NCBI GenBank assembly: GCA_023267275.1
Contig: JAHFNO010000006.1
Location: 9,519 to 73,518 of the forward strand
Origin: Candidatus Nomurabacteria bacterium
Lineage (GTDB): Bacteria; Patescibacteriota; Minisyncoccia; Phycocordibacterales; UBA9973
Reading direction: 5' to 3'
Length of the DNA stretch: 64,000 nucleotides
Position 1 is the stretch's first letter. Each line of letters begins with the position of its first letter. The notes under the pieces were generated by a model that searched no databases, was not told where the DNA came from, and saw only the letters and a program-made list of their open reading frames with translations. Positions 5,025-27,520 of the stretch are shown one piece after another. The position numbers were made by a program, and so were the translations under genes.

Positions 5025-5429
5025 ATGCGATTTTCTGTTCCACAATTTATTGATGTTGAGGACAAAATTTTTGGACCGCTCACGTTCAAACAATTCGTCT
5101 ATCTTGTAGGTGGGGGAGGAATGGTTTTTCTTTGCTATAAATTCTTGCCTTGGTATCTTTGGATCCCTCTTGGTCTTGGATTCGGCGGTCTCGGATTTGC
5201 ACTCGCCTTTGTTAAGGTAAATGAAAAACCGCTCATCAATACGATAGAGGCAATGTTCAATTACGGTATCAATGACAAGCTCTACGTTTGGAAGAAAGAA
5301 CACCCAACCAAAAAATCACAAGAACAAAAGAACAAGGAACAAGAAGTGCCCGTTCAATTACTCCCCCGAATTTCAGAATCCAAGTTGCACGATATAGCTT
5401 GGGGACTTGATGTTCTTGATAAGAGCTAA
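5025..5429 (+). CDS. PrgI-family (VirB3-like) small membrane protein of T4SS
   Basis: The N-terminus (VPQFIDVEDKIFGPLTFKQFVYL) is followed by two TM helices, and the gene lies immediately upstream of VirB4. A conserved TGnTATAAT promoter module ends 7 nt before the ATG. Confidence 0.5.
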   Translation: MRFSVPQFIDVEDKIFGPLTFKQFVYLVGGGGMVFLCYKFLPWYLWIPLGLGFGGLGFALAFVKVNEKPLINTIEAMFNYGINDKLYVWKKEHPTKKSQEQKNKEQEVPVQLLPRISESKLHDIAWGLDVLDKS

Positions 5430-5472: not shown

Positions 5473-5838
5473 ATGCAGGGAAATACTTACAGAGAAACAC
5501 TTAAAAATAAAATGGATCAGTATGTTCATTTTATTTATGGGATAACGAAATCATTTCCAAAAGAAGAAATATTCGGTTCAGTTTCTCAAATACGTAGGGC
5601 GGGGCTTTCTGTTGTTTTGAATTATACGGAGGGTTATGCACGAAGAAAACCCTTGGTTCTACTAAACTTTTATGAGATTGCATATGGCTCTCTTCAAGAG
5701 TCAAAATATTTACTTTTGTTTGCAAAAGACGAAAAATATATACCTGAGGATATATACAAAAAAGGAGAAATTATGGCAAACGAAATAGGTGCAATGCTTT
5801 GGAAAGAAATTCAATCAATAGAAAAATCTATTAAATAA
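5473..5838 (+). CDS. four-helix-bundle protein (TIGR02436, 23S rRNA IVS-like protein family)
   Basis: Family signature SQIRRAGLSVVLNYTEGYARRKPLVLLNFYEIAYGSLQESKYLLLFAKDEKYI. Confidence 0.75.
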   Translation: MQGNTYRETLKNKMDQYVHFIYGITKSFPKEEIFGSVSQIRRAGLSVVLNYTEGYARRKPLVLLNFYEIAYGSLQESKYLLLFAKDEKYIPEDIYKKGEIMANEIGAMLWKEIQSIEKSIK

Positions 5839-11412: not shown

Positions 11413-12687
11413 ATGTCTCGAAAAACAATTCTTATTCTCATTGCAATTCTCCTCGTCGCACTCGGTGTGTGGTTCTATTTTTCGAGCGGAACTCCTTCAG
11501 GAACAAATTCTTCTGGAACACAAAAAAGTCTTTTGAGTTCTCTTTTTCCTTTTGGCGCGGGGACCAACAATCAACAGAACATAAAAACACAAGAACAAGG
11601 AACAACAAATCCAACTGAAGAGACTCAGAGCTCGAATACTCCAGATAAACTCATTCAAATATCAAATCGATTGGTTGCTGGTTTTATTCCACTTGTCACA
11701 GACACTACACCCATCATTAAACACGACATTGGTGGCGGACCAGAGTCACAGATTACTCAAAGTATTTTCCCAACAGTTCGTTTTGCCGAAAAAGGCACGG
11801 GGTACATTTACGATATTGATGTAAAAGGACAGAACGAAAAAAAGATTTCTGAAACAGTGATCGCTCGAACAGCAGAAGCTCTTTTTGCAAACGGTGGTGT
11901 CAACGTATTGCTCCGCTATATTAAAACCGACAATACAACTATTGCCTCATTCCTCGGCACTGTTACAGCACCAGCAAATACCAATGCGGTCGGCACACTT
12001 ACTGGAAATTTCCTTGAGGAAAATATTCCGACTGTCACAACATCACCTGACAAAAAGAATTTTCTCTTTTTAATACCAACAAACACGGGTATCGCTGGTA
12101 TCAGTATGAAAGGCGATGGAAGCGGTAAGAAGCAATTGTTTACGAGTTCTTTCTCTGAATGGCTCCTCGATTGGGGAACGAGCCCAATGCTTACCAGCAA
12201 GGCTTCTAGCACTGTTCCTGGCTATGCATACACTGTACTTGCCGGTGGATCACTGCAAAAAGTACTGGGCAATATAGATGGCCTTACTACAAAGATTAGT
12301 CCGGATGGAAAGACACTACTCTATAGCGTTTCTGGTGGAGGAAGTCTCAATTTACACATCCTAACGCTAAAAACCGGAGTTGATACAAATACCGGTCTTA
12401 CAACACTTCCGGAAAAATGTACTTGGAATACAACGAGTACTGTCGTTTATTGCGGAGTAGGTACGGCAATAGTATCAGCAGAATATCCTGACTCATGGTA
12501 CAAAGGTGTCACTCATTTCACAGATTCATTTTGGAAAATAGACACAACCACAAAAACCACGACGGAAATAAATACGGGGGAGGGAAACAATCTTGATGTA
12601 ATAAATCCAAGCATCGACCCAACTAGTCAATATCTTATTTTCATAAACAAAACAAACGGTAGTCTTTGGTCTTTACAACTCAATTAA
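11413..12687 (+). CDS. membrane-anchored protein with TolB-like beta-propeller repeats
   Basis: The ORF track starts at 11341, but the Met at 11413 begins a TM anchor (MSRKTILILIAILLVALGVWFYF). PDGKTLLYS-type repeats are present. Confidence 0.45.
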   Translation: MSRKTILILIAILLVALGVWFYFSSGTPSGTNSSGTQKSLLSSLFPFGAGTNNQQNIKTQEQGTTNPTEETQSSNTPDKLIQISNRLVAGFIPLVTDTTPIIKHDIGGGPESQITQSIFPTVRFAEKGTGYIYDIDVKGQNEKKISETVIARTAEALFANGGVNVLLRYIKTDNTTIASFLGTVTAPANTNAVGTLTGNFLEENIPTVTTSPDKKNFLFLIPTNTGIAGISMKGDGSGKKQLFTSSFSEWLLDWGTSPMLTSKASSTVPGYAYTVLAGGSLQKVLGNIDGLTTKISPDGKTLLYSVSGGGSLNLHILTLKTGVDTNTGLTTLPEKCTWNTTSTVVYCGVGTAIVSAEYPDSWYKGVTHFTDSFWKIDTTTKTTTEINTGEGNNLDVINPSIDPTSQYLIFINKTNGSLWSLQLN

Positions 12688-12705
12688 TCACAAGAGCAAG
12701 AGAAC

Positions 12706-12853
12706 AATGAATTACCCCGAGCTTACGCTCGGGGTATCTTATATAGAAATACAGCAAAGCTGTATTTCCTTGTGTCCAGAGAGCCCAGGACACAAGAACT
12801 CGCTGCATCACGCGACCTTACGGTCGCGGTATTGGGTGGAAGCCCAGCGTAAT
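12706..12853 (+). repeat. 146-nt multi-hairpin repeat, copy 1 (identical copy at 28868-29015)
   Basis: Identical sequence at both loci. Hairpins CCCCGAGC-TTAC-GCTCGGGG, ATACAGC-AAA-GCTGTAT, TTGTGTCC-N10-GGACACAA and GCGACC-TTAC-GGTCGC, plus an outer CGCTG/CAGCG stem. Each copy is followed by a different intrinsic terminator. Confidence 0.7.
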
Positions 12854-12924
12854 AAAACAAAAATCAAAACCGCGCCTGGCGCGGTTTTGATTTAGTGTGT
12901 TTATGATTTCTTGTTCTGGTGTTT

Positions 12925-13431
12925 TTATGTTCTTGTGTCTCGATATCGAATAACAATGTGTCGTTTCATTCCATCACCCGCTGATTCGGTGTACACATCA
13001 GGGACTTCTCCGAGGAACTCGTGAATGATGCGGCGTTCGTGTGGAGGCATTGGGTCGAGATCAACACTTGATTTAAAATACCGTGCGCGTTCTGCCATCA
13101 TGTGTGCGATGGTTTTTAAATTGTCGATTTTCTTTTTCTCAACATTATTTGCATCAATCACCACACGTGGTCGAACTGTTTCTTCACGCATGATTTGTTC
13201 AACAACTTTTGTTGCCAAGTGATTGAGTGCAGTGAGTGCTTCACCATCACGATTTGAAAGAAGGCGAGTGTGCGGGGAAGTAATAGAAAACCAAATAGTA
13301 TTCATTTTCTCATCATACGAAACAGTAACATCAGCCTCAGTAAAACCGAGTTGAGCAAGCATGCCTTTTATATATGTATGTATTTGGTCGTGTTTCATAG
13401 CGTATATCTCAAATCCTATATTTTGTATCAA
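12925..13431 (-). CDS. jag: RNA-binding protein Jag/KhpB (KH + R3H domains)
   Basis: R3H motif ERRIIHEFL; conserved position downstream of yidC. Confidence 0.75.
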   Translation of the reverse strand: MIQNIGFEIYAMKHDQIHTYIKGMLAQLGFTEADVTVSYDEKMNTIWFSITSPHTRLLSNRDGEALTALNHLATKVVEQIMREETVRPRVVIDANNVEKKKIDNLKTIAHMMAERARYFKSSVDLDPMPPHERRIIHEFLGEVPDVYTESAGDGMKRHIVIRYRDTRT

Positions 13432-13471
13432 TTAGAGGAAAGCCCGCCGATAGGCGGGCTTTTAAGAAAGA

Positions 13472-14200
13472 TTAAGCTTGTTTCTTCGCCTTCATCTTGC
13501 TTCGTGTGTAGAGCTCCTGACCTATAGTAAAGATATTACTCGTAATCCAATAAAGCGCAACTGCTGAAGGAAAAAGGAAGTAAGAGAGTCCGGCAGTCAT
13601 AATAGGGAGTCCATAAATCATTTGTACCTGCATATTCTTGGCAAATTCGGCTTGCATACCAGTACCTGTTGGCTTTGCCTGACGACTCTGCATAAGTTTT
13701 GCTTGTACAAACTGTGTTACTCCAACCAAAACAGCAAATACAATACTGTGCTTCACCGAAAGATCGATAAATCCCAAGAAGTGGAGATTGATGAGTGCTG
13801 GCTGGTGTACAAATGAATAGAGTGTCGCTGGTTGAACAATAGTAAGGATTCCAAGAAAGGCTCGATAGAGAGCAATGAGTACCACAGCCTGGATCAAGAG
13901 TGGCATACAACTTGAAAACGGACTGATATTCTTTTCTTTATACAGTGCGAAAATTTGTTTGTTCTGTTCGGTTTTATCAGTAACTTTTTCTTTGATAGCA
14001 GCAACTTCATCTTGCACACTAGTCATTTTGATCTGGCCTTCGATTGCATGCTGGTTGAGCGGGAAGAGGGCGAGTTTGATAATAATTGTAAGAATAATAA
14101 CCGCAAGACCAAGGTCTCCGTGTGGCAAAATACCAATACCAAAGATCAGTGCATTGTAAAAAGGCTGATAAAAAACAGCGGTCCAAAAAGTGTGTAACAT
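13472..14200 (-). CDS. yidC: membrane protein insertase YidC (short form)
   Basis: Polytopic 242-aa protein in the conserved rnpA-yidD-yidC-jag order. Confidence 0.8.
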   Translation of the reverse strand: MLHTFWTAVFYQPFYNALIFGIGILPHGDLGLAVIILTIIIKLALFPLNQHAIEGQIKMTSVQDEVAAIKEKVTDKTEQNKQIFALYKEKNISPFSSCMPLLIQAVVLIALYRAFLGILTIVQPATLYSFVHQPALINLHFLGFIDLSVKHSIVFAVLVGVTQFVQAKLMQSRQAKPTGTGMQAEFAKNMQVQMIYGLPIMTAGLSYFLFPSAVALYWITSNIFTIGQELYTRSKMKAKKQA

Positions 14201-14310
14201 TGGGTCATTATATCACTAGAGCACGAGAACATGAAAACAAATAAAACCACGCCAGGCGCGGTTTTATTATATCGTGTTTTTATGATTTTTTGTTCTGGTG
14301 TTCTTGTGGT

Positions 14311-14592
14311 TCATGGAACCAGGTCTACACCTGGTGTATTGCGTGGATTACAACGAAGAAGTCGTTTTGATCCTAGATAAACACCTTTGATGGTGCCGTG
14401 TTTTTCAATAGCTTGCTTCATATATTCAGAGCATGTCGGGTAGTACATACACACCTTCCGATTAAGACCAAAAAATCGTGGAATACGTCCGGTGTCAAAA
14501 GACAAGAACTTTTGGTAAAAGATAATCAAAAATATAAAGGGTTTCTTAGAAATTGTGGTCACTGTTTTTATGATCTTTTGTTTATTGTTCAT
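14311..14592 (-). CDS. yidD: membrane protein insertion efficiency factor YidD
   Basis: CMYYPTCSEY motif. Confidence 0.8.
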   Translation of the reverse strand: MNNKQKIIKTVTTISKKPFIFLIIFYQKFLSFDTGRIPRFFGLNRKVCMYYPTCSEYMKQAIEKHGTIKGVYLGSKRLLRCNPRNTPGVDLVP

Positions 14593-14935
14593 TGACTCTA
14601 TATATTCGCGCTTGAATAAACGCTTTTTTGAGTTCTTCCCGCATTTCAGGAATGGTTGTCTTGATATCTGGGTTTGTATAAGAAACGAGGGCTACGGCAG
14701 TTGGGGAAAGAAAGGGGATAAGTGGTCGCACAGCATCATACCCTCGTCGGCGAAGCTTATTTCGAAGCACAGCTTTTGGTGCAATCTTCTTTGAGGCGCT
14801 GAAGGATACTTGGGGAGCTGTATGGGAAGGAATTTGTGTATACAAAACAAGAAAGCGCGAAGTTTTTAACCTTCGGCCCTTGAGAAGATGCTTTTCTATC
14901 GTTTGCTTCGTAATACGCGATCTCTTTGGAAGCAT
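14582..14935 (-). CDS. rnpA: ribonuclease P protein component
   Basis: Basic 117-aa protein immediately downstream of rpmH in the conserved context. Confidence 0.75.
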   Translation of the reverse strand: MLPKRSRITKQTIEKHLLKGRRLKTSRFLVLYTQIPSHTAPQVSFSASKKIAPKAVLRNKLRRRGYDAVRPLIPFLSPTAVALVSYTNPDIKTTIPEMREELKKAFIQARIYRVNEQ

Positions 14936-14994
14936 GTAATGAATTTCTAAATCCTAATGTCTAATTTCTAAAAAAGACCTAGGTATAAAGAAAA

Positions 14995-15129
14995 TTAGAG
15001 TGCGATTTTAGCGCGACCTTTCTGGCGTCTCTTTGCCAAGACTTTTCGTCCGGAAGTAGATTTTGAGCGAACGAGGAAACCGTGGGTTTTTGCTCGTTTT
15101 CTCTTTTTTGGCTGGTAGGTAAATGACAT
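14995..15129 (-). CDS. rpmH: 50S ribosomal protein L34
   Basis: [44 protein letters not shown]; the internal Met at 15129 is used rather than the longer ORF start. Confidence 0.9.
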
Positions 15130-15538
15130 AGAGCCAATATAGCACAAGAACATAAAAACACAAGAACAATAAAACAAAAAATATGAAAACCTGACTTATA
15201 GCTATAGGGTGTGTGTTGGTGGTCTAATGTTCCTTTGTTCTTGTGATTATGGTTCTTGTGATCTTGTAATTTAGTGTTCTATTGAATTTTTTGTTTTCAT
15301 GTTCATTTGTTCTTGTGTTATATTGGTTACCCACAGGTTATCAACAGAGATATGCATCGATATTTCTACTCAAAAAAACCTCGGCCTATATAATCGAACT
15401 TATGGATCCCGTAGTAGAAAATGACATTAAAGAAGCGGGACTGTAAGAGTGTGGTAAACATAAAAAGAAAACCGTTACTAGTATTAATTTAGAAAATGGG
15501 TCGCTTCTTTAAGAAGCAATGTCATTTCTCACTACGGG
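15130..15538. promoter_or_regulatory. candidate oriC part 1 / dnaA promoter region
   Basis: Strand switch between rpmH (-) and dnaA (+). DnaA-box-like 9-mers TTACCCACA, TTATCAACA and TGTGGTAAA each carry 1-2 mismatches to TTATCCACA. Multiple GTTCTTGTG repeats are present. Confidence 0.5.
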
Positions 15539-16900
15539 ATGGATACAAAAGAACTCTGGGACCACTGTTTAGTCGAGATTGAAAGTGAAGTTTCAAAGGC
15601 TAATTTCAGTACTTGGTTTAAAAACACTTCATTAGTAAAAGAAGATGCCGGAACGGTGTTTGTTGGTGTGCCAAATGAATTCGTCAAAGACTGGCTTTCA
15701 AACAAATTCCACAAACTCATCATGCGCGTACTCCGAAACGCATGGGAACACACTCGCAATGTTGAATACATGGTAGTAAAAGGCGATCCAAAGTCGCACA
15801 AAATTGAAGTTTCAAGCCAATTGAAGCCAGATTTTGCTATCAGCCAAGAACTTCCTCTCAAAGACCTCTATGTAAACAAGGATGACAACCTCAATCCTCG
15901 TTATACGTTCGATACATTCATCGTTGGACCATTCAACGAGCTCGCATATGCTGCCACACAAGCTGCAGTGGCTCGTCCAGGTAAGCAATACAACCCGCTT
16001 TTCATCTATGGATCGTCTGGTCTTGGAAAAACCCACCTCATTCAAGCAGTAGGGAATGCTATCAAGGAAAAATATCCAGAAAAAAAGGTGTACTACATCA
16101 CGCAGGAAAAATTTACGGTTGATTACATCAACTCAGTACAATCAAACCGTGGTGCTGGAAATACTTTTAAGGAAAAATATCGTAAGTATGATGCGATTAT
16201 TATTGACGACGTACAACTTGTAGGAAAAGCGGAAAAAACCCAAGAAGAATTATTCCATTTATTCAACAGCTATCACGAAGCAGGGAAGCAGATTGTCTTT
16301 TCTTCTGATAAACACCCAAACTTTATTCCGGGATTGGAAGATCGTATGCGCACTCGTTTTGCGCAGGGTATGATAGTGGATATTACCGAGCCTGAATATG
16401 AGTCTCGTCTCGCAATTTTACGTTCAAAAGTACAAGAACTTGGACTCAACCTTCCAGATGAGCTTATGGAATACATTGCAAGCGCTATTGCCGGTAATGT
16501 GCGTGAGCTCGAGGGTAGTTTGAATGCAATCGTGCTTCAATCTCAACTCAAAGGACGTTTTCCAACACTCCTTGAAACAAAAAACCTTCTAAAAAATAGT
16601 ATCAAACAAAAGAAAACCGCTTCCGTAAAAGAAGTAGTGAAGACGATTGCTGACTTTTATAATGTAGAAGAGGCTTCTATTTACGAAAAGACTCGCCGAA
16701 AGGAGATTGTGAAGGTTCGCCAAATCGTGATGTTTATTCTCCGTGAAGATTTTAGTGTGTCATATCCACTTATTGGACAAAAACTCGGGGGAAAAGATCA
16801 CACCACTGTTATCCATTCATGCTTAAAAATAAAGAACGATATGAAAAACGACATGCTTATTGCTCAAGAATTAGATCAAATACGGGCATTGTTCAAATAA
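15539..16900 (+). CDS. dnaA: chromosomal replication initiator DnaA
   Basis: AAA+ Walker A GSSGLGKTHL and a C-terminal DNA-binding domain; characteristic position next to dnaN. Confidence 0.95.
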   Translation: MDTKELWDHCLVEIESEVSKANFSTWFKNTSLVKEDAGTVFVGVPNEFVKDWLSNKFHKLIMRVLRNAWEHTRNVEYMVVKGDPKSHKIEVSSQLKPDFAISQELPLKDLYVNKDDNLNPRYTFDTFIVGPFNELAYAATQAAVARPGKQYNPLFIYGSSGLGKTHLIQAVGNAIKEKYPEKKVYYITQEKFTVDYINSVQSNRGAGNTFKEKYRKYDAIIIDDVQLVGKAEKTQEELFHLFNSYHEAGKQIVFSSDKHPNFIPGLEDRMRTRFAQGMIVDITEPEYESRLAILRSKVQELGLNLPDELMEYIASAIAGNVRELEGSLNAIVLQSQLKGRFPTLLETKNLLKNSIKQKKTASVKEVVKTIADFYNVEEASIYEKTRRKEIVKVRQIVMFILREDFSVSYPLIGQKLGGKDHTTVIHSCLKIKNDMKNDMLIAQELDQIRALFK

Positions 16901-17124
16901 TTGAAGGTTTTGGGTAAAGGTCTGTGGAAAAAGGGTGTGAATATGTGGAATGAATGTGAATAAAAAGAGTGATTTAAAACAAGAAAAAATAGGTGTGTGT
17001 ATAAGATTCTCATTATCAACAGTTGTATAAAAGAAAAAATACAGATTATAGGTTTACAATATAAAGGTATTTCAATCTTATACACATTTCCACAGGGTTA
17101 ATAGTAATAGTAATTTATATATAT
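16901..17124. promoter_or_regulatory. candidate oriC part 2 (dnaA-dnaN intergenic): DnaA-box cluster + AT-rich unwinding element
   Basis: Box-like sites TGTGGAAAA, TGTGGAATG, TGTGAATAA, TTATCAACA and TTTCCACAG, followed by taatagtaatagtaatttatatatat immediately before the dnaN ATG. Confidence 0.5.
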
Positions 17125-18222
17125 ATGATATTCGAAACTACTGTTGAAAAACTCATAACTATAATTGAAAATGCAGATCGTGTGACAGCACGAAATGCAT
17201 CACTCCCAGCACTAAGTACAATTCTTATGATTGTTTCCGGGAGTTCTCTAAAAGTACGAGCAACAAATCTTTCTCTTGGAGTTGAATTTGAAATACCAGT
17301 AAAAAAAGAAAAGGATGGTGTGATTGCACTCGACGGAAAAACACTCTATTCATTTTTAAGTACTCTTCCAAAAAACGAGAAAATAAAAATAGCACACAAT
17401 GAATCAACCCTCACTCTCACCACAGATCACAATCGCACTACAATCAAAACTCACCCATACGAAGATTTTCCTACACTCCCTTCTGTTTCAGGTACTCAAA
17501 TTCAAATACCACAGAAAGAATTTATTCGCGGTATAAAAAACACTTACTTTGCATCCGCTGTTTCTGATATCAAACCCGAGATTGCAAGTGTATTTATGTG
17601 TGCTGAAAAAAACACACTATTTTTTGTGGCTACAGACTCATTCCGTCTTGCTGAAAAGAAAGAAACAATCAAAAAAGCCGTAGAATTTTCTCCGATTCTC
17701 ATTCCATATAAAAACATTATTGAAATTGCTCGTATTCTTGAAAATAAAACAGAAGAAATAACACTTTCTATTAATGAAAATCAAATCGCAATAACGATTC
17801 CAGGAATATATATCACCTCACGACTTACTTCTGGAAGTTTTCCAGATTATAAGCAGATTATCCCCAAGGAATTTCTTACTGAAGTCGTAGTGTTGAAACA
17901 AGATTTACTTACTACACTCAAAACCGCAAACATTTTCTCAGATAAATTTAATCAAATTACGTTTTCTATTACGCCTTCCAAGAAAAAGTTTGAATGTGTA
18001 TCAAAAAATTCTGATGTTGGTGAATATTCTGGAGTAATCGACGCAACCCTCTCCGGAGATGATGTCTCAATCGCTCTCAATCAACGCTATTTGATTGAAT
18101 GTCTCTCATTCATCCCTCAAGACAGTATTACAATTGGACTCAATGGTGGCAGCAAGGCGGTCGTTATACGCGGTGTAGGAGATTCTTCATTCACATACCT
18201 CCTTATGCCGATGAATAGGTAA
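17125..18222 (+). CDS. dnaN: DNA polymerase III beta sliding clamp
   Basis: 365-aa protein directly after dnaA; three-domain clamp-like sequence. Confidence 0.85.
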   Translation: MIFETTVEKLITIIENADRVTARNASLPALSTILMIVSGSSLKVRATNLSLGVEFEIPVKKEKDGVIALDGKTLYSFLSTLPKNEKIKIAHNESTLTLTTDHNRTTIKTHPYEDFPTLPSVSGTQIQIPQKEFIRGIKNTYFASAVSDIKPEIASVFMCAEKNTLFFVATDSFRLAEKKETIKKAVEFSPILIPYKNIIEIARILENKTEEITLSINENQIAITIPGIYITSRLTSGSFPDYKQIIPKEFLTEVVVLKQDLLTTLKTANIFSDKFNQITFSITPSKKKFECVSKNSDVGEYSGVIDATLSGDDVSIALNQRYLIECLSFIPQDSITIGLNGGSKAVVIRGVGDSSFTYLLMPMNR

Positions 18223-18319
18223 ACCCAGGTGTTGGGTGTTTGGTTTTAGGTGTTAGAAAAATACAAATCAATTTTAAGATGATTTACTATTCCCTTAATC
18301 CTAATCCCTTTTCCCTACA

Positions 18320-18580
18320 ATGAAACAACTTAGCGAATTTTTAGAGCGATTTATAAAACTCGCACAATCAAGCGATGATGCAAAACAAGCAATCATTGAT
18401 GCCTTACAACAATCAGGTGTTCGGGTAAATGGGGGATTAGAAAGTGTTGTGATTCGCGGGACGATAGCCACACTTAAACTAAGTCCAATTCAAAAAAGCG
18501 AAGTGTCACTCCGACAAGCAAAAATTATTGCGCTCCTAAAAGAAAATCCCTTAACCAAACACCTCACAGTAGTGAGGTGA
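18320..18580 (+). CDS. small hypothetical protein downstream of dnaN
   Basis: ORF followed by the bidirectional terminator at 18598-18632. Confidence 0.4.
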   Translation: MKQLSEFLERFIKLAQSSDDAKQAIIDALQQSGVRVNGGLESVVIRGTIATLKLSPIQKSEVSLRQAKIIALLKENPLTKHLTVVR

Positions 18581-18678
18581 ACAAAAGAACAATAATTAAA
18601 AAAGCACCGCGGGCGAAGCCCGCGGTGCTTTTGTTCTTGTGTTCATTGTTTTTATGTTCTTCTGAAGATATAAATATT

Positions 18679-21195
18679 TTACTGAATATTTATCTCTTCA
18701 GAAGTGGTCCCTGTGGATTCAACTGTGTCAGTTCCTACCACCATCAATGTATTTGTTCCTGTTTGGAGGTTTGAAATCTGTTCAAGAGGAATCGAGAGGG
18801 TGGGGGTTGATCCATTTGTAGTACCAACATAATTATTGTTCAAGAACACATCCATTTTTTTAAGTGCATATGCTCCAGTAGAAGATATTGAAACAGTGAT
18901 CGTATCTTTTGTTGAAACAGTGCTTCCTTCCATCGGATTTGTTATTTTTATATGTGGTGCATTTGCAAGTGTGTGTACATCGTCATATCCAGCAGGTTTT
19001 TGAGCGAGTGTCACAATAGGGTATTTAGAACTATTTACCTTCCACCAATCCTGCACGGCCGTTTCCCAGTTGTTGTAGAGAGATTCACCTTGAGAGTTTC
19101 CCAAAAATCGATTGCGTGGATCAGTACGATTTACCCAATGAAGAATGTCGTGTACCTCAGTAACCACATATTCTTTTTGAGTTGCCTTTGGAGTCTGTGC
19201 CGTCGCAAGTTTTCCAGAGATAGTATCGACAACAAAACTCGTGTTTCCTTGCCAATATCCACGAAGCACCGGAGGAAGGGTGGCATAATCCGGATCAACC
19301 TCGGGTTTTTCAAATGTTTCAACCGGATAATTTTTTAGTGCCTCTTCCATAAATTGGTGCCAGATCGGTGCAGCAGTAATTCCTTTTCTCATAGCAGTGT
19401 TGTCATTTTTTCCAGCCCATACACCAGCAACGAGCGATGGTGTATATCCAATGGTCCACAAGTCTTTATAATCGTTTGTGGTACCTGTTTTCACTGCAAT
19501 CTGATGGTCGGGGAAGAAGAGTGGAGAAGTCGGGCTGTAGGTCAATCTACGCGCATTGTTGTCGGTGAGCACATCACTAATTTCCAAGGCAGCATTTTTA
19601 GGGAGTACTTGCATTGGATTGTCTTGCCAAGTTTCAAGCGTCGCTCCAGTATTGTCAGTAACCGAAAGAATTCCGTTGTATGGATGACGAACGCCGTTGT
19701 TGGCAAAAACCCCGTATGCACTTACTGCTTCGAGTAGCTTTACTTCACCACCTCCAAGTACAAGCGTTAGACCATAGCGTGACGAATCGGCAAGAGTGGT
19801 AATTCCCATGTCTTGTGCGGTTTTAATTGTATTTTGCACACCCACCATATAGAGCATTTTTACCGCAGGTACGTTCATAGAACTTCCGAGTGATGTGCGA
19901 ATATCGAGCGGGCCATGATAGGTTCCGTCGTAGTTTACTGGCATATAACATTCATCTTGTTTTGTGTTTGCATCTTTTGGATGGCCATATGGATTACAAC
20001 TTGCGTTGAATTCTGTTGGTACATCAAAAAGCACAGTGTCTGGCGTGTAACCATCTTCAAATGCCGTTGCATACATGTATGGTTTGAACGAGGATCCTGG
20101 CTGACGACGAGCTGTCGTCACATTGAAGTTTCCATCGATCTGCGTGTCGAAATAATTTCGGGAACCAACCATGACCAATAGTTGTCCTGTCTTTGGATCA
20201 ATCGCCACAAATCCAGCGTTCAAATCCTCGAGCTGTTTTTTGTCGCCGGTGGTATATTCTGCCACCGCGTTCTCGGCGATTTGCTGGAGATTGTAATCGA
20301 GTGTAGTAATCACTTTGAGTCCGCCAGATTCTACAGTATCGACTCCATATTTTTGTTCAAGATAATCTTTGATGAAAAAAACAAAGTGTGGAGCTTTAAT
20401 GCCTTGTGATTGTTGTGGCTTAAATACAACTTGTTCCGCTTTTGCTTGTGCATATTCTGTATCAGAAATAAATTTCAATTCATGTTCGCGAGCAAGCACG
20501 AGATTTTTGCGTGTTACCAAATCATCTTTATGTGTTCCGTAGGGAGAATAGTGTGTTGGTGCATTGGGAATAGCTGCAAGATAGGCAGCTTCGGCAACAG
20601 TCAAATCTTTTGGATCTTTGCCGAAAAATGTTTGTGATGCTTCTTGAATACCAAAAATATTTCCGCCATACGGAATTTCGTTGAGGTAAATTCCTAAAAT
20701 TTGATCTTTTGAATATGAGCGTTCAAGCTTGAGCGCCAAAATAATTTCCTTGAGTTTGCGTACAATCGTCTTGTCACTCGTGAGAAGACTTTGTTTGATT
20801 ACTTGTTGAGTGATAGTTGATCCACCTTGCACTGCACCCGCATGGGTAATGTTGGCAACAAGTGCGCGAAGCATTGCTTTTGGCTGAACACCAATGTGTT
20901 GATAGAAATTTGAATCTTCAATGGCAACAGTGGCATTTTTTATATTCGCTCCCATATCAGTATAGGGAATAGAGGTGCGGTGTGCGTCACTTCCCAAATC
21001 GTACAACACGATTTGCCCAGTACGGTCATATATTTTTGTGGAATTTACTTGTTTGCGGGAGTCGAACGAAGTGAAGTCGGGAAGCTTCATAAAGCTGATC
21101 CAAATGATGAGCACGCCAAAAATAAACGCCCCGATTCCGAGCACTGCGAATAATGTGTTACGAACATGATGCGTTTTTATGTTTGCTAATGCCAT
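18679..21195 (-). CDS. class A penicillin-binding protein (transglycosylase + transpeptidase)
   Basis: GT51 motifs EDSNFYQHIGV and GGSTITQQ; transpeptidase motifs SSFKP (SxxK) and KTGTT; N-terminal TM anchor. Confidence 0.85.
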   Translation of the reverse strand: MALANIKTHHVRNTLFAVLGIGAFIFGVLIIWISFMKLPDFTSFDSRKQVNSTKIYDRTGQIVLYDLGSDAHRTSIPYTDMGANIKNATVAIEDSNFYQHIGVQPKAMLRALVANITHAGAVQGGSTITQQVIKQSLLTSDKTIVRKLKEIILALKLERSYSKDQILGIYLNEIPYGGNIFGIQEASQTFFGKDPKDLTVAEAAYLAAIPNAPTHYSPYGTHKDDLVTRKNLVLAREHELKFISDTEYAQAKAEQVVFKPQQSQGIKAPHFVFFIKDYLEQKYGVDTVESGGLKVITTLDYNLQQIAENAVAEYTTGDKKQLEDLNAGFVAIDPKTGQLLVMVGSRNYFDTQIDGNFNVTTARRQPGSSFKPYMYATAFEDGYTPDTVLFDVPTEFNASCNPYGHPKDANTKQDECYMPVNYDGTYHGPLDIRTSLGSSMNVPAVKMLYMVGVQNTIKTAQDMGITTLADSSRYGLTLVLGGGEVKLLEAVSAYGVFANNGVRHPYNGILSVTDNTGATLETWQDNPMQVLPKNAALEISDVLTDNNARRLTYSPTSPLFFPDHQIAVKTGTTNDYKDLWTIGYTPSLVAGVWAGKNDNTAMRKGITAAPIWHQFMEEALKNYPVETFEKPEVDPDYATLPPVLRGYWQGNTSFVVDTISGKLATAQTPKATQKEYVVTEVHDILHWVNRTDPRNRFLGNSQGESLYNNWETAVQDWWKVNSSKYPIVTLAQKPAGYDDVHTLANAPHIKITNPMEGSTVSTKDTITVSISSTGAYALKKMDVFLNNNYVGTTNGSTPTLSIPLEQISNLQTGTNTLMVVGTDTVESTGTTSEEINIQ

Positions 21196-21252
21196 TCCAG
21201 TATCATATCACGACCCAAGGACAAAAAAGGGCATTTATGGTACAGTGCTTTT

Positions 21253-22623
21253 ATGAAATCTGTAGATATTGAAGAATTATTTTCTCGCGGAGCTGCGAGT
21301 TTTATAGACCCCGACAATGCATTCCGTAAAAAAGTGGAGGCAAAAATTGCGGGCAACTATCCAGGCGATATTGTTATCAAAATCGGTATGGATCCAACAC
21401 GACCAGACATTCATATCGGCCACGCCGTGATTCTTCGCAAACTTCGTTCATTCCAAGATATCGGCTGTAAGATCATTTTCCTTATCGGCGACTTTACTTC
21501 TCTCATTGGTGATCCGACCGGCAAAAGTAAAACTCGCCCCGAGATTAGTCAGCAAGAAATCGAGAACAATATGAAGACCTACCTCGACCAGGCAGGAAAA
21601 ATTCTTTCACTTGATCCAAAGGTATTTTCTTGGATTCGCAATTCTGATTGGTTTGTTTCTATCAACGACATTCTCGCTCCCGACAATCGAAAAGATCTTT
21701 CTTTTGGAGATATTTCCGTTTCTGTCGACAAACCACTTCCTGGTACACATATTTTGAACAAGGCGAGTTATTGGGTGGAGACACGCATGCAAAAAAATGC
21801 GATTCACAGTTTTTCATTCCTCAACGTTCTTTCTGTGCTTCGTCATGTTACCCACGCACGTCTCATTGAACGTGACATGTTTCAAGATCGTATAGAGAAA
21901 GGGGGAGAACTCTACATGCACGAAATGATGTATCCAGTATTGCAAGGAATCGATTCCACTGTCCTCGCAAACATTTACGGATCATGTGATCTTGAAATCG
22001 GAGGTACCGACCAGACATTCAACATGCTCATGGGACGCGATGTTATGCGTATGAACAAACAAGAAGAGCAATCAGTGCTCTCTATGGATATTCTCGAAGG
22101 ACTTGATGGAAAGGAAAAAATGAGTAAATCACTCGACAACTACATTGGTATCACTGATGAACCAAACAACATGTACGGCAAGGTGCTCTCTATTCCTGAC
22201 GCACTCATTCCACGCTATTTCGCACTTGCCACATACACACCGCTTGCCGAAACAAAAGAAATTGAAAAAACACTCGCGAGTGGAAACACAAATCCGCGTG
22301 ACTTAAAGATGCGCTTGGCACGAGAAATCGTTGCAATATACCACGGTGAATCTGCCGCAGAAGGCGCAGAAAAAAATTTTGTTGAAACGTTTTCACAAAA
22401 AAAGATTCCAGAAAATGTTTTGGAAATCTCTGGAGAATTTACTTCGATTGTTGACGCTATGATGAAAGCCGAAGTTGCTGAATCAAAAACAGATGCACGT
22501 CGTCTGATTGAAGCAGGTGCAGTGACATATCTCGAATCTGATACAAAAATTACTGACGCAACGACTGTACCAGAAAAAGGTACGTATCGTGTTGGAAAGA
22601 TTCGTTTTTTCCGAATCGGGTAG
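21253..22623 (+). CDS. tyrS: tyrosine--tRNA ligase
   Basis: HIGH motif (DIHIGHAV), GDFTSLIGDPTGKS, KMSKS, and a C-terminal S4-like domain. Confidence 0.75.
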   Translation: MKSVDIEELFSRGAASFIDPDNAFRKKVEAKIAGNYPGDIVIKIGMDPTRPDIHIGHAVILRKLRSFQDIGCKIIFLIGDFTSLIGDPTGKSKTRPEISQQEIENNMKTYLDQAGKILSLDPKVFSWIRNSDWFVSINDILAPDNRKDLSFGDISVSVDKPLPGTHILNKASYWVETRMQKNAIHSFSFLNVLSVLRHVTHARLIERDMFQDRIEKGGELYMHEMMYPVLQGIDSTVLANIYGSCDLEIGGTDQTFNMLMGRDVMRMNKQEEQSVLSMDILEGLDGKEKMSKSLDNYIGITDEPNNMYGKVLSIPDALIPRYFALATYTPLAETKEIEKTLASGNTNPRDLKMRLAREIVAIYHGESAAEGAEKNFVETFSQKKIPENVLEISGEFTSIVDAMMKAEVAESKTDARRLIEAGAVTYLESDTKITDATTVPEKGTYRVGKIRFFRIG

Positions 22624-22759
22624 AGTCACAAGAACAAAAGATCATCAGAGTATAAAAACACGAGAGCAGATAATATAAAAACAAAAAATACAAACCCCGC
22701 GCCTGGCGCGGGGTTTGTATTAATGTTCTAGTGATTATTGTTCTCGTGTTCTAGTGATT

Positions 22760-22939
22760 TTACAAGTCTGCTGTAGGCAAATCACTCTCGTCATCGTCTT
22801 CTGTGTCGACATCATCATCGGTGAGGGGAATATCATCTGCTAAAAATTCATCATCGATGTCCGTATCATCTGTCAAAGCAGTTCCGGTAAATTCTGGATC
22901 TTCATCGGATGGGCGAATTGTATCTTCTTCAAATTGCAT
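22760..22939 (-). CDS. small (59 aa) highly acidic hypothetical protein
   Basis: Manual translation gives MQFEEDTIRPSDEDPEFTGTALTDDTDIDDEFLADDIPLTDDDVDTEDDDESDLPTADL. It falls below the 60-aa ORF-track cutoff and sits between two terminator/repeat regions. Confidence 0.35.
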   Translation of the reverse strand: MQFEEDTIRPSDEDPEFTGTALTDDTDIDDEFLADDIPLTDDDVDTEDDDESDLPTADL

Positions 22940-23101
22940 ACTAAGAAAAAATTATAAGTAAGTAAAATAGTTTTCGAGCGACCTAATAACGACCTAATAA
23001 TGTACAGTTGTAACAGATGCAGTTTTTATTAGCAACACCTGTTTTACAAAAAAGTGTGGATATCTAAAAGAGTATGCGTACACAAAATGAATTGGCTCTT
23101 T

Positions 23102-23578
23102 TTATCGAATTTTTGCAATTGCAAAACAAGTGAGCGCTACAGCGATTGCATCCACTTCATCGTCAATCATTTTGCGTTCCGGAAGTTTGATGAGACGTGG
23201 CACCATGTCCATCACTCCGCGCTTGTCACTTTTTCCATAACCAGTAACCGCTACTTTTATTTCAAGTGGTGTGTATTCAAAAATAGGGATGTGCGCTCGA
23301 GCACCTTCATACAAAAGTACACCACGGGCCTCCGCTACCACCATCGCTGTTTTCGTGTTTGTTTCAAAAAACAATTTTTCGATTGCCATACCATCCGGAT
23401 TCCATTCGGTGATCACACGAGCGACTTCTTCTCCCAAGAGAAGAAGTCGCTCGCTGTGCGAAATTTTTGCCGATGTTTTAAAACACTCAGAAAATAAAAA
23501 TGTTTCCTTGTTGCCGATTTTTTCGATTACCGCAATACCGATTCGTTCAATTCCTGGATCAATTCCTAGGATTCTCAT
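23102..23578 (-). CDS. ruvC: Holliday junction resolvase RuvC
   Basis: N-terminus MRILGIDPGIERIGIAVIE. Confidence 0.85.
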   Translation of the reverse strand: MRILGIDPGIERIGIAVIEKIGNKETFLFSECFKTSAKISHSERLLLLGEEVARVITEWNPDGMAIEKLFFETNTKTAMVVAEARGVLLYEGARAHIPIFEYTPLEIKVAVTGYGKSDKRGVMDMVPRLIKLPERKMIDDEVDAIAVALTCFAIAKIR

Positions 23579-23590
23579 AATGTCTAATAA

Positions 23591-23971
23591 CTAATTTCTA
23601 ATTTCTAAAGAATTCGCCTTTGACTTGAGCGAAATGGTAACAAAGATTTTTCGAAGTTCTTCAGCTTCTTTGTATAGTTTTTCTAATTCAGTTCTATGAA
23701 CTTCTGTTTCAATAAGTAGTCGCAACCAGTACTCTGTTTCCTGAGCTTCTTTTTTGCAAATACCAATTTTATGTTCAAAATCCTTTCTTGACTCAGCTCC
23801 ATCAGCCTCATGATAGTTTGCACCAATGCTTGTTCCGGAGCGAATACATTGCAAAATTAAATTTTGGTTTGTCATATTCCTTTGTATTTTTTTGAGAGAA
23901 AAGATTAGATTCTTGCTAAACAAAAAAGTTCTTTCTTTCAAATCATATTTTTTTGTATTGCCATTAGACAT
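23591..23971 (-). CDS. four-helix-bundle protein (TIGR02436 family), second copy
   Basis: Family signature LQCIRSGTSIGANYHEADGAESRKDFEHKIGICKKEAQETEYWLRLL. Confidence 0.75.
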   Translation of the reverse strand: MSNGNTKKYDLKERTFLFSKNLIFSLKKIQRNMTNQNLILQCIRSGTSIGANYHEADGAESRKDFEHKIGICKKEAQETEYWLRLLIETEVHRTELEKLYKEAEELRKIFVTISLKSKANSLEIRN

Positions 23972-23996
23972 TAGAAATTAGAAGTTAGATATTGGG

Positions 23997-24521
23997 TTAC
24001 TCGGCGTTTGTTAGTACTTCTTGCACCTCATTATTGTTTTCTAGTTCATCAATGAGTTTTTCGAGTGCAACACCATCTTCTTCGGAGAGGGGAACAGTCA
24101 TTGTTGGAGTAAGTTCACCATCTACTTTTTGAAATGCCCACATAACACTACCGATGGATCCAAGCGAGGAACCATTTTTATCAAGTATATGACGAATCTC
24201 TTGTGCGGCGCGATTGCGTGAATCGGTAAGTGCTTCAATAATGATTCCGACTCCGCCCGGACCGTAGGCTTCGTAGACGATTGTTTCCAAATCTTTGGCT
24301 TCAGTAGCTTTGCTAATTGCTCGTTCAATAGTATCGACTGGCATATCTGCAGCACGAGCTTTATCGATAGCACTGCGTACTGCTACGGCATTGCGATCGC
24401 CACCAGCCACTTTTACCTGCGCGGAAATCATACGGGAAAGCTTTCCAAAGAGTTGGCTTCGCTTACTATCGCTCGCACCTTTTTGACGTTGTATTTGTGA
24501 CCATTTGTTATGACCTGACAT
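23997..24521 (-). CDS. YebC/PmpR-family transcriptional regulator (short form)
   Basis: MSGHNKWSQIQRQKGASDSKRSQLFGKL ... YEAYGPGGVGIIIEALTDSRNRAAQEIRH; lies between ruvC and ruvB as in many bacteria. Confidence 0.75.
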   Translation of the reverse strand: MSGHNKWSQIQRQKGASDSKRSQLFGKLSRMISAQVKVAGGDRNAVAVRSAIDKARAADMPVDTIERAISKATEAKDLETIVYEAYGPGGVGIIIEALTDSRNRAAQEIRHILDKNGSSLGSIGSVMWAFQKVDGELTPTMTVPLSEEDGVALEKLIDELENNNEVQEVLTNAE

Positions 24522-24607
24522 ATTGCCCAGTATAAATTATCTTTTTCTAAGTAGAAAGGGTTTGACAAATATATAAAAAGGAGGATAATCGAAAAAAACT
24601 AACGCTT

Positions 24608-24862
24608 ATGTATCGCAAACATTTACAGTTTATAACAGAGTTTGGTCCAGCAAACTTTATAATTAGAAAGCAAATAGATCTCGGACACATAGAAGACCAG
24701 GATGTCTTAGATTTTATAAAAATAAGAACCGGAAAAAACTCCTTGGACGAAAACATAAAATATGAGCTGAGGCGCTTACGGAAAAAAGATATTCGATACA
24801 TTCCTTTCGGTGTGATTAATATCACAAAACCCGAATTATGTGTCGAATCTATTGAATGTTAA
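24608..24862 (+). CDS. small hypothetical protein
   Basis: ORF ends 20 nt before the terminator hairpin ATACAGCCCTGCATGCAGGGCTGTAT. Confidence 0.3.
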   Translation: MYRKHLQFITEFGPANFIIRKQIDLGHIEDQDVLDFIKIRTGKNSLDENIKYELRRLRKKDIRYIPFGVINITKPELCVESIEC

Positions 24863-25242
24863 AACGATATTGTATTTATTTATACAGCCCTGCATGCAGG
24901 GCTGTATTTTTTTAAAACCAAATATCCGGGTATTGTATAAACACAGCAACATGCTAGTATTTGTTTCAAATCCACCGCCCATGTTCTCAATACCAATCGC
25001 CCTCCTTATTTACAAATGCCGGCATTTCGTGATGCTTTATTCTGTAAAAGCAATCATTGTCGTCGCCAACTGTATCGATGAATTACACAGATCAAAAACA
25101 GGTATGTTTTTTATCAAAACAGCAGAAGCATTTGCAAAATTATCAATGTAACAGCCTGTCACTCATGATAGGCTGTTTTTCATTTCCAGATTTAGATTGC
25201 TTGTATTCCTTAAAAAGAGTGCTATTGTGAAGAAAAACTATT

Positions 25243-25767
25243 ATGAAACTTATTGATTTTAGAAAAGATCTCGATACATTCAAAAATGAATTACAGGAGA
25301 TTTTTGGAGAAAACTTCTCTCAGATAACAGAATTTCCACTTCCATTGTTTCCCGCGCTCTTCTATTTCAAACAACGGTTTAAATATGGTGAAGAAAAGGA
25401 GTATACAGTGACCCATACCCATCGTATTACGAATATTGATCCATCGAGATACCCATTTCGTGGAGCAATAGGACTCGAGAAGGATTCTTTCTCTTCATGC
25501 AGTTTCGTACTCTACGGCGGAAAATTTGAAAAGAGCGAAGAAGACCAGCTTATGTGGGTGAAAGAGGTGTTCCGATTGCGCGGAGGGATTTTTGATAAAA
25601 ATATGCCAGCTTTGAATGGCGAAGAAAAGCTCAATATCAATGCACAATTTGATTTTTCCTTGTTGCTTGATACAAAAAAAGAATTGCAGTTTATTGCAAA
25701 CATGTTCTCTGAAATAGCAGATTTATATGATTTGATGAATTCAAAAATTGAAAGCGTAAAACTATAA
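25243..25767 (+). CDS. hypothetical protein
   Basis: ORF followed by the terminator AAAAATCCCCATATTACGGGGATTTTT. Confidence 0.5.
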   Translation: MKLIDFRKDLDTFKNELQEIFGENFSQITEFPLPLFPALFYFKQRFKYGEEKEYTVTHTHRITNIDPSRYPFRGAIGLEKDSFSSCSFVLYGGKFEKSEEDQLMWVKEVFRLRGGIFDKNMPALNGEEKLNINAQFDFSLLLDTKKELQFIANMFSEIADLYDLMNSKIESVKL

Positions 25768-25837
25768 AGTAAAAATCCCCATATTACGGGGATTTTTTTG
25801 TTACTCAAACAAGTTTTTTGGAATACCCTAAAGCAAA

Positions 25838-26830
25838 TTATTGCTCGGGCGCGTCGAACCCTAAATGTTCGTAAGCCTTTTTTGTCACCGTGCGTCCGCG
25901 AGTGGTTCGCTCAAGGAGTCCGCGTTGAATGAGATACGGTTCAATCACTTCTTCGATCGTTGCTTCTTCTTCACTCGTCGCTGCCGCAATCGTGTTGAGT
26001 CCCACTGGTCCACCATTGAATTTCTCAATGATTACTTGGAGTACTTGGCGGTCGGATTCTGAAAGACCGAGTTCGTCGATACCCAAGAGGGAAAGTGCAA
26101 GAAATACAGTTTTTTTATCTAAATCTTTTTTATGCACCTGTGCGTAGTCACGGCAACGTTTCAAAAAATAGTTTGCGGTGCGGGGAGTAAAGCGCGCACG
26201 TTTTGCGATTTCTGCTACGGCATCATCGTCAATGGTTACGCCAAGCACTTTTGCTGAGCGATGAATGATCTTCGCAATTTGTTCTTCGGTATAAAATTCC
26301 AAACGAAATGTTCCACCAGAAAAACGTGAGCGGAGTGGGGCAGAAAGAAGCGCGATGCGTGTGGTTGCTGCGATAAGAGTGAATGCAGGAAGGTCGAGTT
26401 GGATTGTACGAGCGCTTGGACCTTTGCCGATAATAATATCGAGTACGCCACTTTCCATGGCAGGGTAGAGGACTTCTTCAATAGTCTTATTCAAGCGATG
26501 AATCTCGTCGACAAACAAAATATCTCCCGGTTGCAGGTTTGTAAGTATGGAAGCAAGGTCGCCAACTTTTTCAATTGCCGGCCCACTCGTCGATTTGAGC
26601 GAGCGTCCAGTTTCTTTTGCAATCAAATGGGCGAGCGTTGTCTTTCCCAATCCTGGTGGACCATAAAAAAGAATATGTTCGGCAGGATGATTGCGTTCCG
26701 AAGCAGCTTGCAAAAGAATTTTTAAATTTTCTTTGATGGATTCCTGACCAATATACTCATCAAATGAGCTTGGGCGGAGTGTCTGGTCAAGATATGAGTC
26801 GTTTTCTTTTTTTTCTTCGTTATTTTCCAT
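25838..26830 (-). CDS. ruvB: Holliday junction branch-migration ATPase RuvB
   Basis: LRPSSFDEYIGQ ... ILFYGPPGLGKTTLA. Confidence 0.9.
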   Translation of the reverse strand: MENNEEKKENDSYLDQTLRPSSFDEYIGQESIKENLKILLQAASERNHPAEHILFYGPPGLGKTTLAHLIAKETGRSLKSTSGPAIEKVGDLASILTNLQPGDILFVDEIHRLNKTIEEVLYPAMESGVLDIIIGKGPSARTIQLDLPAFTLIAATTRIALLSAPLRSRFSGGTFRLEFYTEEQIAKIIHRSAKVLGVTIDDDAVAEIAKRARFTPRTANYFLKRCRDYAQVHKKDLDKKTVFLALSLLGIDELGLSESDRQVLQVIIEKFNGGPVGLNTIAAATSEEEATIEEVIEPYLIQRGLLERTTRGRTVTKKAYEHLGFDAPEQ

Positions 26831-27381
26831 TGTTTTTTAGAATTATTTAGCTTCGTTTTGGTGTTCCTTTAGACATTAGTCATTAGACCTTAGGATTTGG
26901 GTTATAAATGACCACTCTTGACATTTGCAACCTGCTATGCTAGACTAGCAGTAATTAAATCAATACCCACTTTATACACAGGGTATACACACAGTATACC
27001 ACCTGGCCCCATAAATTTCTTTCGGGACTCAGGGTACTATAATTGGGAGGCGATTTTTTATTTTTTAGGATATACATAAATGGCGCATTTCTGAATCAGC
27101 AGATTCACTCTTGGAGGAAGTTGCTTCGCTCGTTTGTTCCCGCAATGTACCCCGTGTACATTTTGGTCACAAGCCTCGCTCGCGCCTCGAACTGCATCCA
27201 TTTCTGTTAAATCCTATTTAAGAAGGCATAAATCTCTAAGTGATCAAGTTTTCGGACTGTATAGGATCTCGTAAAGGACGTTTTGGCTCCCAGGCTCGTT
27301 TCTGGAAGTGCTGCAGCTATCCTCCGCGGTCTCCTTACTTTTAACACCTAGTTGTTGAAAGGATTATTTAGAGATTTATGC

Positions 27382-27520
27382 TTTTTTTGTTGTCAAAATA
27401 GTAAAAAAATATGTCGTTTTGAAAGACACGAAAATTTTTTGCTAAAAATTTTCTCTGTCCGTCGCCGGTCGCTCCTCCCAAGGTCTTTCAAAACGACATA
27501 CTATTTTTACAACAAAAAAA
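27382..27520. repeat. long imperfect inverted repeat (~40-bp arms, ~55-nt spacer)
   Basis: Left arm TTGTTGTCAAAATAGTAAAAAAATATGTCGTTTTGAAAGAC pairs with right arm GTCTTTCAAAACGACATACTATTTTTACAACAA. It lies inside the 0.78-kb gene-free island 26831-27617. Confidence 0.7.

Follow-up and report, generated by a model that had tools for sequence, protein, structure and literature searches.

Two identical 145-nt blocks on either side of the likely replication origin of a Candidatus Nomurabacteria genome are very probably non-autonomous IS200-type elements

Two blocks of 145 nt, located as identical direct repeats 16,162 bp apart in a 64,000-nucleotide stretch of Candidatus Nomurabacteria DNA (the whole stretch that was analysed, hereafter the window), are very probably non-autonomous derivatives (MITE/PATE type) of a member of the IS200 group of the IS200/IS605 family. 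The block is an ordinary kind of mobile DNA and not a new RNA gene. A preliminary description of this DNA had left the choice between a small structured RNA gene, a 3'-UTR element and a recently mobile miniature element. The last of these was upheld by the homology of the ends, by empty sites in relatives and by the fit of a guide/cleavage code, while the two RNA options were not supported as its identity, as no Rfam family was matched, the block was absent from orthologous loci and the hairpins had the architecture of an insertion sequence (IS).

Pairwise comparison within the window identified 154 nt which are 100% identical between positions 12704-12857 and 28866-29019, slightly more than had first been reported, and it was confirmed that the flanks of the two copies are unrelated, with immediate divergence on either side. 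Two 100% identical copies at unrelated core-genome loci are consistent with recent movement. The repeat is real and not an assembly artefact, since one independent contig from ENA runs through copy 2 with 100% identity and another (k=141) ends after 141 nt of the repeat, as a genuine repeat would predict. The window was screened for further full, partial or diverged copies using blastn, nhmmer and a scan for GTAA/TTAC-looped hairpins and none was found; neither copies nor tnpA were detected when it was extended by approximately 8.6 kb to the left and approximately 2 kb to the right with ENA contigs. The exact element was not found outside this organism in scans of genomes and JGI metagenomes. 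In the latter the specific 28-nt right end gave 0 matches, a degenerate left-end pattern recovered from metagenomes only a related family from a Hainich H51 sample (family F2, see below), and the element was not found in viral contigs, which were scanned twice. The search of related genomes for more copies, which the preliminary description had proposed, leaves only two known copies, both in the window.

No internal ORF with homologues was present in the 145-nt element. Its sole fully open frame, encoding the peptide MNYPELTLGV..., had no homologue in a collection of 5.8 billion protein clusters; a small protein gene was accordingly rejected and the earlier suspicion that the peptide predicted here is an artefact of the block was borne out. 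A DGR TR/VR pair was likewise rejected, as the copies are 100% identical and non-coding and their overlap with a gene amounts to one stop codon.

Other repeats were also noted in the window. Segments 52365-52463 and 58327-58424 (D9 and D15) are 83-90% identical, lie approximately 5.96 kb apart and are situated approximately 100-230 nt downstream of tRNA genes (52194-52266 and 58192-58263); they could represent a duplicated tRNA-flanking segment or the boundaries of an integrated element. A 75-nt direct repeat (D7; 44605-44679 and 45896-45970; 91% identity, spacing 1291 nt) has its first copy just upstream of ORF 44755-45885 and its second near the start of ORF 45848-48919, and the arms of a 37-nt inverted repeat (I4; 35290-35326 and 62260-62296; 89% complementary; GTCATCCTGAACTTGATTCAGGATCC...) are 27 kb apart.

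The boundaries of the element were set by comparison with a relative, represented by L119 (JGI 3300035182) and L120 (SRR11727985), in which the ortholog of ORF 28330-28872 adjoins the same pilB-like ATPase gene. The empty site there reads ...GGTGCACA / ATAAAACAAAACGG-terminator (beginning ATAAAAC, with the slash marking the insertion point) and is exactly 145 nt shorter: the relative reads ...CCTGGTGCACA / ATAAAACAAAACGG-terminator where the window reads ...CCCGGTACACA + 145 nt + ATAAAAAACGG-terminator. On the top strand (the transposase-sense strand, which is the minus strand of the window) the L119 site is TTTTAT / TGTG, and the window holds 145 nt exactly at the slash. On the basis of this comparison the two copies were delimited as listed in Table 1, each situated 3' of TTAT without target duplication. 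A TTAC target (GTAA on the plus strand), considered by analogy with IS608, was rejected, as both the empty site and the guide rule described below lead to TTAT, a shift of 2 nt. Some bases are shared by the two copies beyond the ends of the element (TGT past the right end and TT past TTAT on the left); these exceed the 4-nt need of the target, and only the T-rich terminator context and chance are offered as an explanation. At the jag side, where copy 1 is located, the intergenic region in four related genomes (one of which co-occurs in the same ENA samples) measures 37-95 nt and holds the terminator alone; these relatives lack the element, yet are too diverged to yield a base-by-base empty site.

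Each copy is located between convergent genes, beside a bidirectional intrinsic terminator, and the upstream genes encode proteins of 448 amino acids (copy 1) and 180 amino acids (copy 2). The preliminary description had assigned each copy its own terminator. A terminator-like hairpin does follow each copy, but it lies outside the element: both terminators belong to the host and also occur at the empty sites. The reported positions relative to the upstream genes were reproduced, in that copy 1 starts 18-19 nt past a TAA stop codon (12685-12687; 18 nt had been given) and the stop codon of ORF 28330-28872 is a TGA (28870-28872) inside copy 2. At copy 2 the ancestral CAA TAA was overlapped by the target ATAA (plus strand) and now reads CA-A TGA. 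As the terminal ATGA of the element restores the stop, the protein is unchanged; it still ends ...GTQ in the window, the protein of the relative ending ...GAQ. In the same ortholog an in-frame TAG was observed in the two independent assemblies (L119, 517-519; L120, 511-513), past which in-frame homology to the window protein runs for approximately 40 more codons to the shared ...PGAQ-stop end; this could be a pseudogene, read-through or a recoded codon.

Table 1. Coordinates of the two copies, their component parts and the adjacent host terminators in the window.
Feature	Copy 1	Copy 2	Strand	Basis or remark
Non-autonomous IS200/IS605-type element (very probable), 145 nt, copy 1	12707-12851		-	Empty-site comparison, guide/cleavage rule, end homology
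Same 145-nt element, copy 2		28869-29013	-	Identity to copy 1; L119/L120 empty site
Target and predicted left cleavage site TTAT (ATAA on +)	12852-12855	29014-29017	-	Flank, outside the element; kept in L119 empty site
Left-end (LE) subterminal hairpin and guide	12809-12833	28971-28995	-	Alignment A1, six related elements
Right-end (RE) subterminal hairpin TACCCCGAGC GTAA GCTCGGGGTA and guide	12713-12738	28875-28900	-	20-nt core shared
Predicted right cleavage site TCAT (ATGA on +), last 4 nt of element	12707-12710	28869-28872	-	Guide rule
H3, CTTGTGTCC/GGACACAAG, putative counterpart of LE-leader/tnpA-3'-end helix	12769-12796	28931-28958	-	Position
H2, GAAATACAGC/GCTGTATTTC, between bridging helix and RE hairpin	12746-12768	28908-28930	-	Position only
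Hairpin H1	12713-12736		+ (reading)	10 bp, TTAC loop
Hairpin H2	12746-12768		+ (reading)	10 bp
Hairpin H3	12769-12796		+ (reading)	9 bp
Hairpin H4	12811-12828		+ (reading)	7 bp, TTAC loop
Host bidirectional intrinsic terminator, 448-aa gene/jag	12861-12893		both	Relatives without the element have one there
Host bidirectional intrinsic terminator, ORF 28330-28872/pilB-like ATPase gene		29017-29049	both	Equivalent in L119 empty site

When read on the plus strand, the block contains the four hairpins originally described, two of them with TTAC loops, together with the enclosing stem, although the latter (GCTG/CAGC) is weak. On the minus strand it carries a subterminal hairpin with a GTAA loop at each end, on one strand and in direct rather than inverted orientation, and terminal inverted repeats are absent. 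The left part of the minus strand reads TTTTAT / TACGCTGGGCTTCCACCCAATA, LE hairpin, ATGCAG, CGAGTT, CTTGTGTCC ... GGACACAAG, and the right part GAAATACAGC TTT GCTGTATTTC, TATATAA, GATA, CCCCGAGC GTAA GCTCGGGG, TAAT TCAT / TGT. The top-strand sequence of the LE hairpin itself (12809-12829) is C-CGCGACC GTAA GGTCGCG-(T)-G, in which a single base is bulged; the left guide AATA, of 4 nt, is located 5' of the hairpin foot (12830-12833 on the plus strand) and a conserved ATGCAG follows directly 3' of the hairpin. The right guide, GATA, occupies 12735-12738 on the plus strand.

The family motif reported from one hairpin stem, CACAAGAAC, was found in the H3 stem of both copies (12791-12799 and 28953-28961). 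The same motif was counted 14 times against 0.68 expected, with 2 of the 14 occurrences in the H3 stems of the element copies. In addition, 8-nt-periodic arrays of CACAAGAAC / GTTCTTGTG, with the variants ACATAAAA and ACACCAGA, were observed around the origin, between positions 4900 and 22750 of the window, on either strand and both between genes and at their ends (for example at 5292-5344, 11563-11607, 12885-12945, 14205-14312, 15134-15325, 18625-18661 and 22627-22753).

The 20-nt core of hairpin 1 (CCCCGAGCTTACGCTCGGGG) was used to search one genome per GTDB species and was found in at least 116 places, in many phyla; only the first approximately 45 nt (AATGAAnnn and the hairpin) are common to the block and those matches. 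In L006 (Uhrbacteria), L026 (Peribacteria) and L057 (Liptonbacteria) the core is located 2-13 nt 3' of the stop codon of an ORF of 143-144 amino acids, with the GTAA loop on the ORF strand. The ORFs of L006 and L026 match Pfam Y1_Tnp (E = 6e-32 and 9e-35, respectively), and that of L057 is 58% identical to these two (tblastn; the Pfam scan covered L006 and L026). The L026 ORF scored 132.9 bits against the NCBIfam model transpos_IS200 (cut-off 55), compared to only 24 bits against the RAYT model (cut-off 80). Versions of tnpA which are frameshifted or internally deleted were found in L097 and L073, and three contigs of a Gracilibacteria MAG (L011, L012 and L051) end in the same tnpA 3' end and hairpin, with a different flank in each after ...TTCAT; related copies diverge directly after TTCAT. 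As it follows the tnpA stop codon in L006, L026 and L057, the hairpin is the RE subterminal hairpin of a widespread IS200-type IS. Its core is also identical to the right end of many miniature elements.

Many of the 20-mer matches do not belong to this family, for example rrn terminators of Pseudidiomarina and longer GC-rich hairpins in Planctomycetota. In a Pseudidiomarina indica MAG (L047, L066 and L098) the 20-nt hairpin and a T-run were observed directly after the 3' end of the 5S rRNA; as the same hairpin is the rrn operon terminator there, some matches lie outside the IS family.

The left end of the block (CACCCAATA-CCGCGACC GTAA GGTCGCGTG-ATGCAG) aligns with the LE of the IS copies L006, L026, L057 and L097, as well as with miniature elements in Gracilibacteria, another Patescibacteria MAG, Firestonebacteria and others, and in the alignment of six related elements (A1) 4 of the 5 pairs in the upper stem show compensatory changes on both sides. 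In the transposase sense, a full-length IS consists of a flank, 15-20 nt, the LE hairpin (for example CTCCGGGC GTAA GCCCGAGAG, with a bulged base), GGGATGnAG, a leader, tnpA, a small hairpin (CAAGC GAAG CTTG), the 4-nt guide, the RE hairpin, AGnTTCAT and a flank. Four families, designated F1-F4, each comprise several near-identical copies without a transposase gene in unrelated flanks, with TTTAC or TTTAT at the left boundary and TTTAC, TTCAC or TTCAT at the right one.

In L006, L026, L057 and L097 a stretch of 13-18 nt in the leader after GATGnAG is the perfect complement of the final codons of tnpA, and the sequence of this helix differs between the IS copies; it is a covarying long-range helix which joins the ends of the IS. 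H3 begins after ATGCAG and approximately 6 nt, the same position as the leader helix in the IS copies, and a central hairpin is found at this position in the miniature elements L069 and L070 and in those of family F1. H2 is situated where the IS copies carry the CAAGC-GAAG-CTTG hairpin, a match in position only, with sequence homology absent. H3 and H2 appear to be what remains of the leader/tnpA-3'-end helix and of the small hairpin preceding the RE, respectively, after loss of the transposase coding region. It is conceivable, if rather doubtful, that the bridging helix, the RE core (identical across distant phyla) and the covarying LE make up an undescribed conserved four-helix scaffold of this IS200 clade. 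If so, the bridging helix could be a functional requirement, holding the ends together in single-stranded DNA for synapsis, or alternatively could join the two ends of the tnpA mRNA by base pairing and throttle its translation, and the miniature element would represent the scaffold reduced to its minimum.

The cleavage sites of IS608 pair with tetranucleotide guides, one located 5' of the foot of each hairpin (AAAG with TTAC at the left end); the left site lies outside the element, 19 nt from the hairpin on its 5' side, and the right site inside the element, 10 nt from the hairpin on its 3' side (PMC3201880). The pairing scheme applied here was guide position 1 with site position 2, guide position 2 with site position 1 and guide position 4 with site position 4. 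Under this scheme the right guide GATA predicts a TCAT site, which is present 4 nt after the core of the RE hairpin as the last bases of the element, and a TTAT site is predicted by the left guide AATA, in agreement with the flank set independently by the empty site, 22 nt from the hairpin foot. The order hairpin, 4 nt, TCAT recurs with the same spacing in at least 20 related ends. Among the matches listed, the predicted right site was located 2-14 nt downstream in 31 of 93 distinct hairpin contexts, compared to 9.2 ± 2.6 contexts (maximum 22 in 2000 trials) for shuffled guides; the rule is obeyed by only about a third of the 20-mer matches listed. Guide and site also covary between families (GAAA or GATA with TCAT, GATG with TCAC, AAAA with TTAT and AATG with TTAC), and related families carry TTTAC or TTTAT at the place of the left target.

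By extension of the IS608 paradigm, a TnpA dimer made elsewhere would bind both hairpins on the single-stranded top strand, the guides AATA and GATA would pair with TTAT in the left flank and TCAT at the end of the element, respectively, and the top strand would be excised as a single-stranded circle, the RE-LE junction of which would read ...ATTCAT joined to TACGCTGG.... The circle would then be inserted 3' of another TTAT that is single-stranded during replication. T-rich TTAT occurs in the A/T tracts beside bidirectional terminators, which explains why both copies are located between a stop codon and a host terminator. No Y1 transposase gene was found in the 64-kb window or in approximately 10 kb of added flank (approximately 75 kb in all), so that a trans-acting partner in this genome is only assumed.

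The interval between the two copies contains jag, yidC, yidD, rnpA, dnaA, dnaN, a class A PBP gene, tyrS, ruvC, yebC and ruvB. Clusters of DnaA boxes (one mismatch) were identified upstream of dnaA (15327-15346) and in the dnaA-dnaN spacer (16923-17086), the cumulative GC skew has its minimum near 12 kb, and oriC is likely to lie between the two copies. This family prefers insertions with the top strand on the lagging-strand template (PMC6006769, PMC5027513). With oriC placed between them and both copies in the same orientation, only copy 1 would have the preferred orientation (1 of 2 copies, a sample of two). Two small genes for 23S-rRNA-IVS / bAvd four-helix-bundle proteins were also observed (5473-5838 and 23591-23971), one inside a type IV secretion-like cluster (TraG/VirB4-like, PrgI, TraC-like and T4SS pilin) and the other between ruvC and yebC.

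Three other explanations of the repeated block were weighed. That it is maintained for a function, be it as a small RNA gene in its own right or as a cis-acting structured 3'-UTR RNA (a processing signal or stabiliser), is improbable. Co-transcription would be expected on the plus strand, where each copy is preceded by a stop codon and followed by an intrinsic terminator, and folding is very strong: z-scores were -9.2 for plus-strand RNA, -6.9 for minus-strand RNA and -9.5 for minus-strand single-stranded DNA, and 0 of 200 shuffled controls were as stable as the block. Two of the minus-strand loops are moreover GUAA, a GNRA-type tetraloop. The Rfam scan suggested in the preliminary description nevertheless gave no family at gathering thresholds and, at E ≤ 10, only sub-threshold matches on the element, the best of which were driven by the terminator; orthologous loci in relatives are entirely without the element, and all four hairpins are explained by homology to, or position in, IS200-type elements. 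The perfect stems and the identity of the copies point to recent copying rather than long-term conservation. The element does add 145 nt of stable structure to two 3' UTRs on the plus strand. Any effect of this on mRNA stability is speculation; a stabilising side effect on the upstream 3' UTRs, as known for REP sequences, is possible and would be secondary.

Still less probable is a REP/REPIN-type element served by a single-copy domesticated RAYT in place of an IS200 derivative. The block is an extragenic, hairpin-based repeat beside terminators, as such an element would be, and RAYTs are related to the TnpA of IS200 (PMC3333891, PMC3337134). The transposase linked to the hairpin, however, scores as transpos_IS200 and far under the RAYT cut-off, and its genes sit inside multi-copy IS units bounded by LE and RE; instead of two inverted REPs the block has an LE hairpin and a different RE hairpin that share one orientation, and its guides and cleavage sites are arranged as in IS608.

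It can hardly be credited that the repeat is an assembly artefact, a pair of att-type sites of an island or the product of a non-mobile duplication, whether segmental or by gene conversion: identical direct repeats 16,162 bp apart would suit attL and attR, but att sites of an integrated island were ruled out because the 16-kb interval is core genome around the origin, with no match to an integrase among its 17 largest ORFs (12925-28872), while the repeat is reproduced in independent assemblies and the block matches a widespread mobile family.

As a probable IS200-type derivative, the block resembles IS608 of Helicobacter pylori in several respects: its two ends carry subterminal hairpins in place of terminal inverted repeats, it is inserted 3' of a defined tetranucleotide and the target is not duplicated, a 4-nt guide 5' of each hairpin foot pairs with the cleavage site, the left site is outside the element at a distance of approximately 20 nt from the hairpin (19 nt in IS608 and 22 nt in the block), and the right site is inside the element, a few nucleotides 3' of the hairpin. 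It differs from IS608 in its target (TTAT as opposed to TTAC), in the distance of the right site from the hairpin core (4 nt as opposed to 10 nt) and in its hairpin sequences, which are unrelated. The full-length IS200-type copies L006, L026 and L057 measure approximately 600-700 nt, compared to 145 nt for the element here, which lacks tnpA.

The PATEs of Haloquadratum and the PATE-like elements of Geobacillus stearothermophilus are similarly protein-less and consist only of the LE and RE of an IS200/IS605 element, and their mobilisation in trans is presumed, as it is here (PMC10055086, PMC3119063). Published PATEs derive from IS605/IS1341-type elements bearing tnpB or iscB and often encode guide RNAs, whereas the element here stems from a tnpA-only IS200-type clade, shows no sign of a guide RNA and is carried by a small CPR-type host genome. 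The element shares with REP, BIME and REPIN sequences its small size, its hairpin structure, its occurrence as a repeat outside genes, a relationship to the ends of IS200, a frequent location near terminators and possible effects on mRNA stability; the differences are an enzyme of the IS200 type and not a RAYT, an LE-RE arrangement and not an inverted REP doublet, and few copies. Close counterparts are also the miniature elements L069 and L070 (Gracilibacteria), F1 (Elusimicrobiaceae), F2 (Patescibacteria H51-bin091), F3 and F4 (Firestonebacteria). Their 20-nt RE core is identical to that of the element here, their LE hairpin is homologous and precedes GGGATGnAG, and they likewise have a hairpin in the centre and T-rich targets of the form TTAY. 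They differ in their internal sequences, which are unrelated, and in length (approximately 105 to 150 nt), and none carries the H2 or H3 sequences found here. No description of IS200-derived miniature elements in CPR bacteria was found in a search of the literature, which is absence of evidence only.

The finding is mildly novel with respect to the identity of the RE hairpin across phyla, the covarying LE/3'-end helix and the location next to oriC in a small genome of the CPR type. What had been a candidate for a novel structured RNA now has a precise annotation, with boundaries, active strand, target and cleavage sites, and the odd overlap with a stop codon is explained as a silent insertion. 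For annotation pipelines, such blocks break short-read assemblies and yield spurious ORFs. At 145 nt, with two hairpins and the predicted guides AATA and GATA, the element offers a compact test substrate for this IS200 clade, in which the RE hairpin shows unusual conservation between phyla. Relics of single-strand transposons that were active or acquired recently are thereby shown to occur beside the origin in very small CPR-type genomes.
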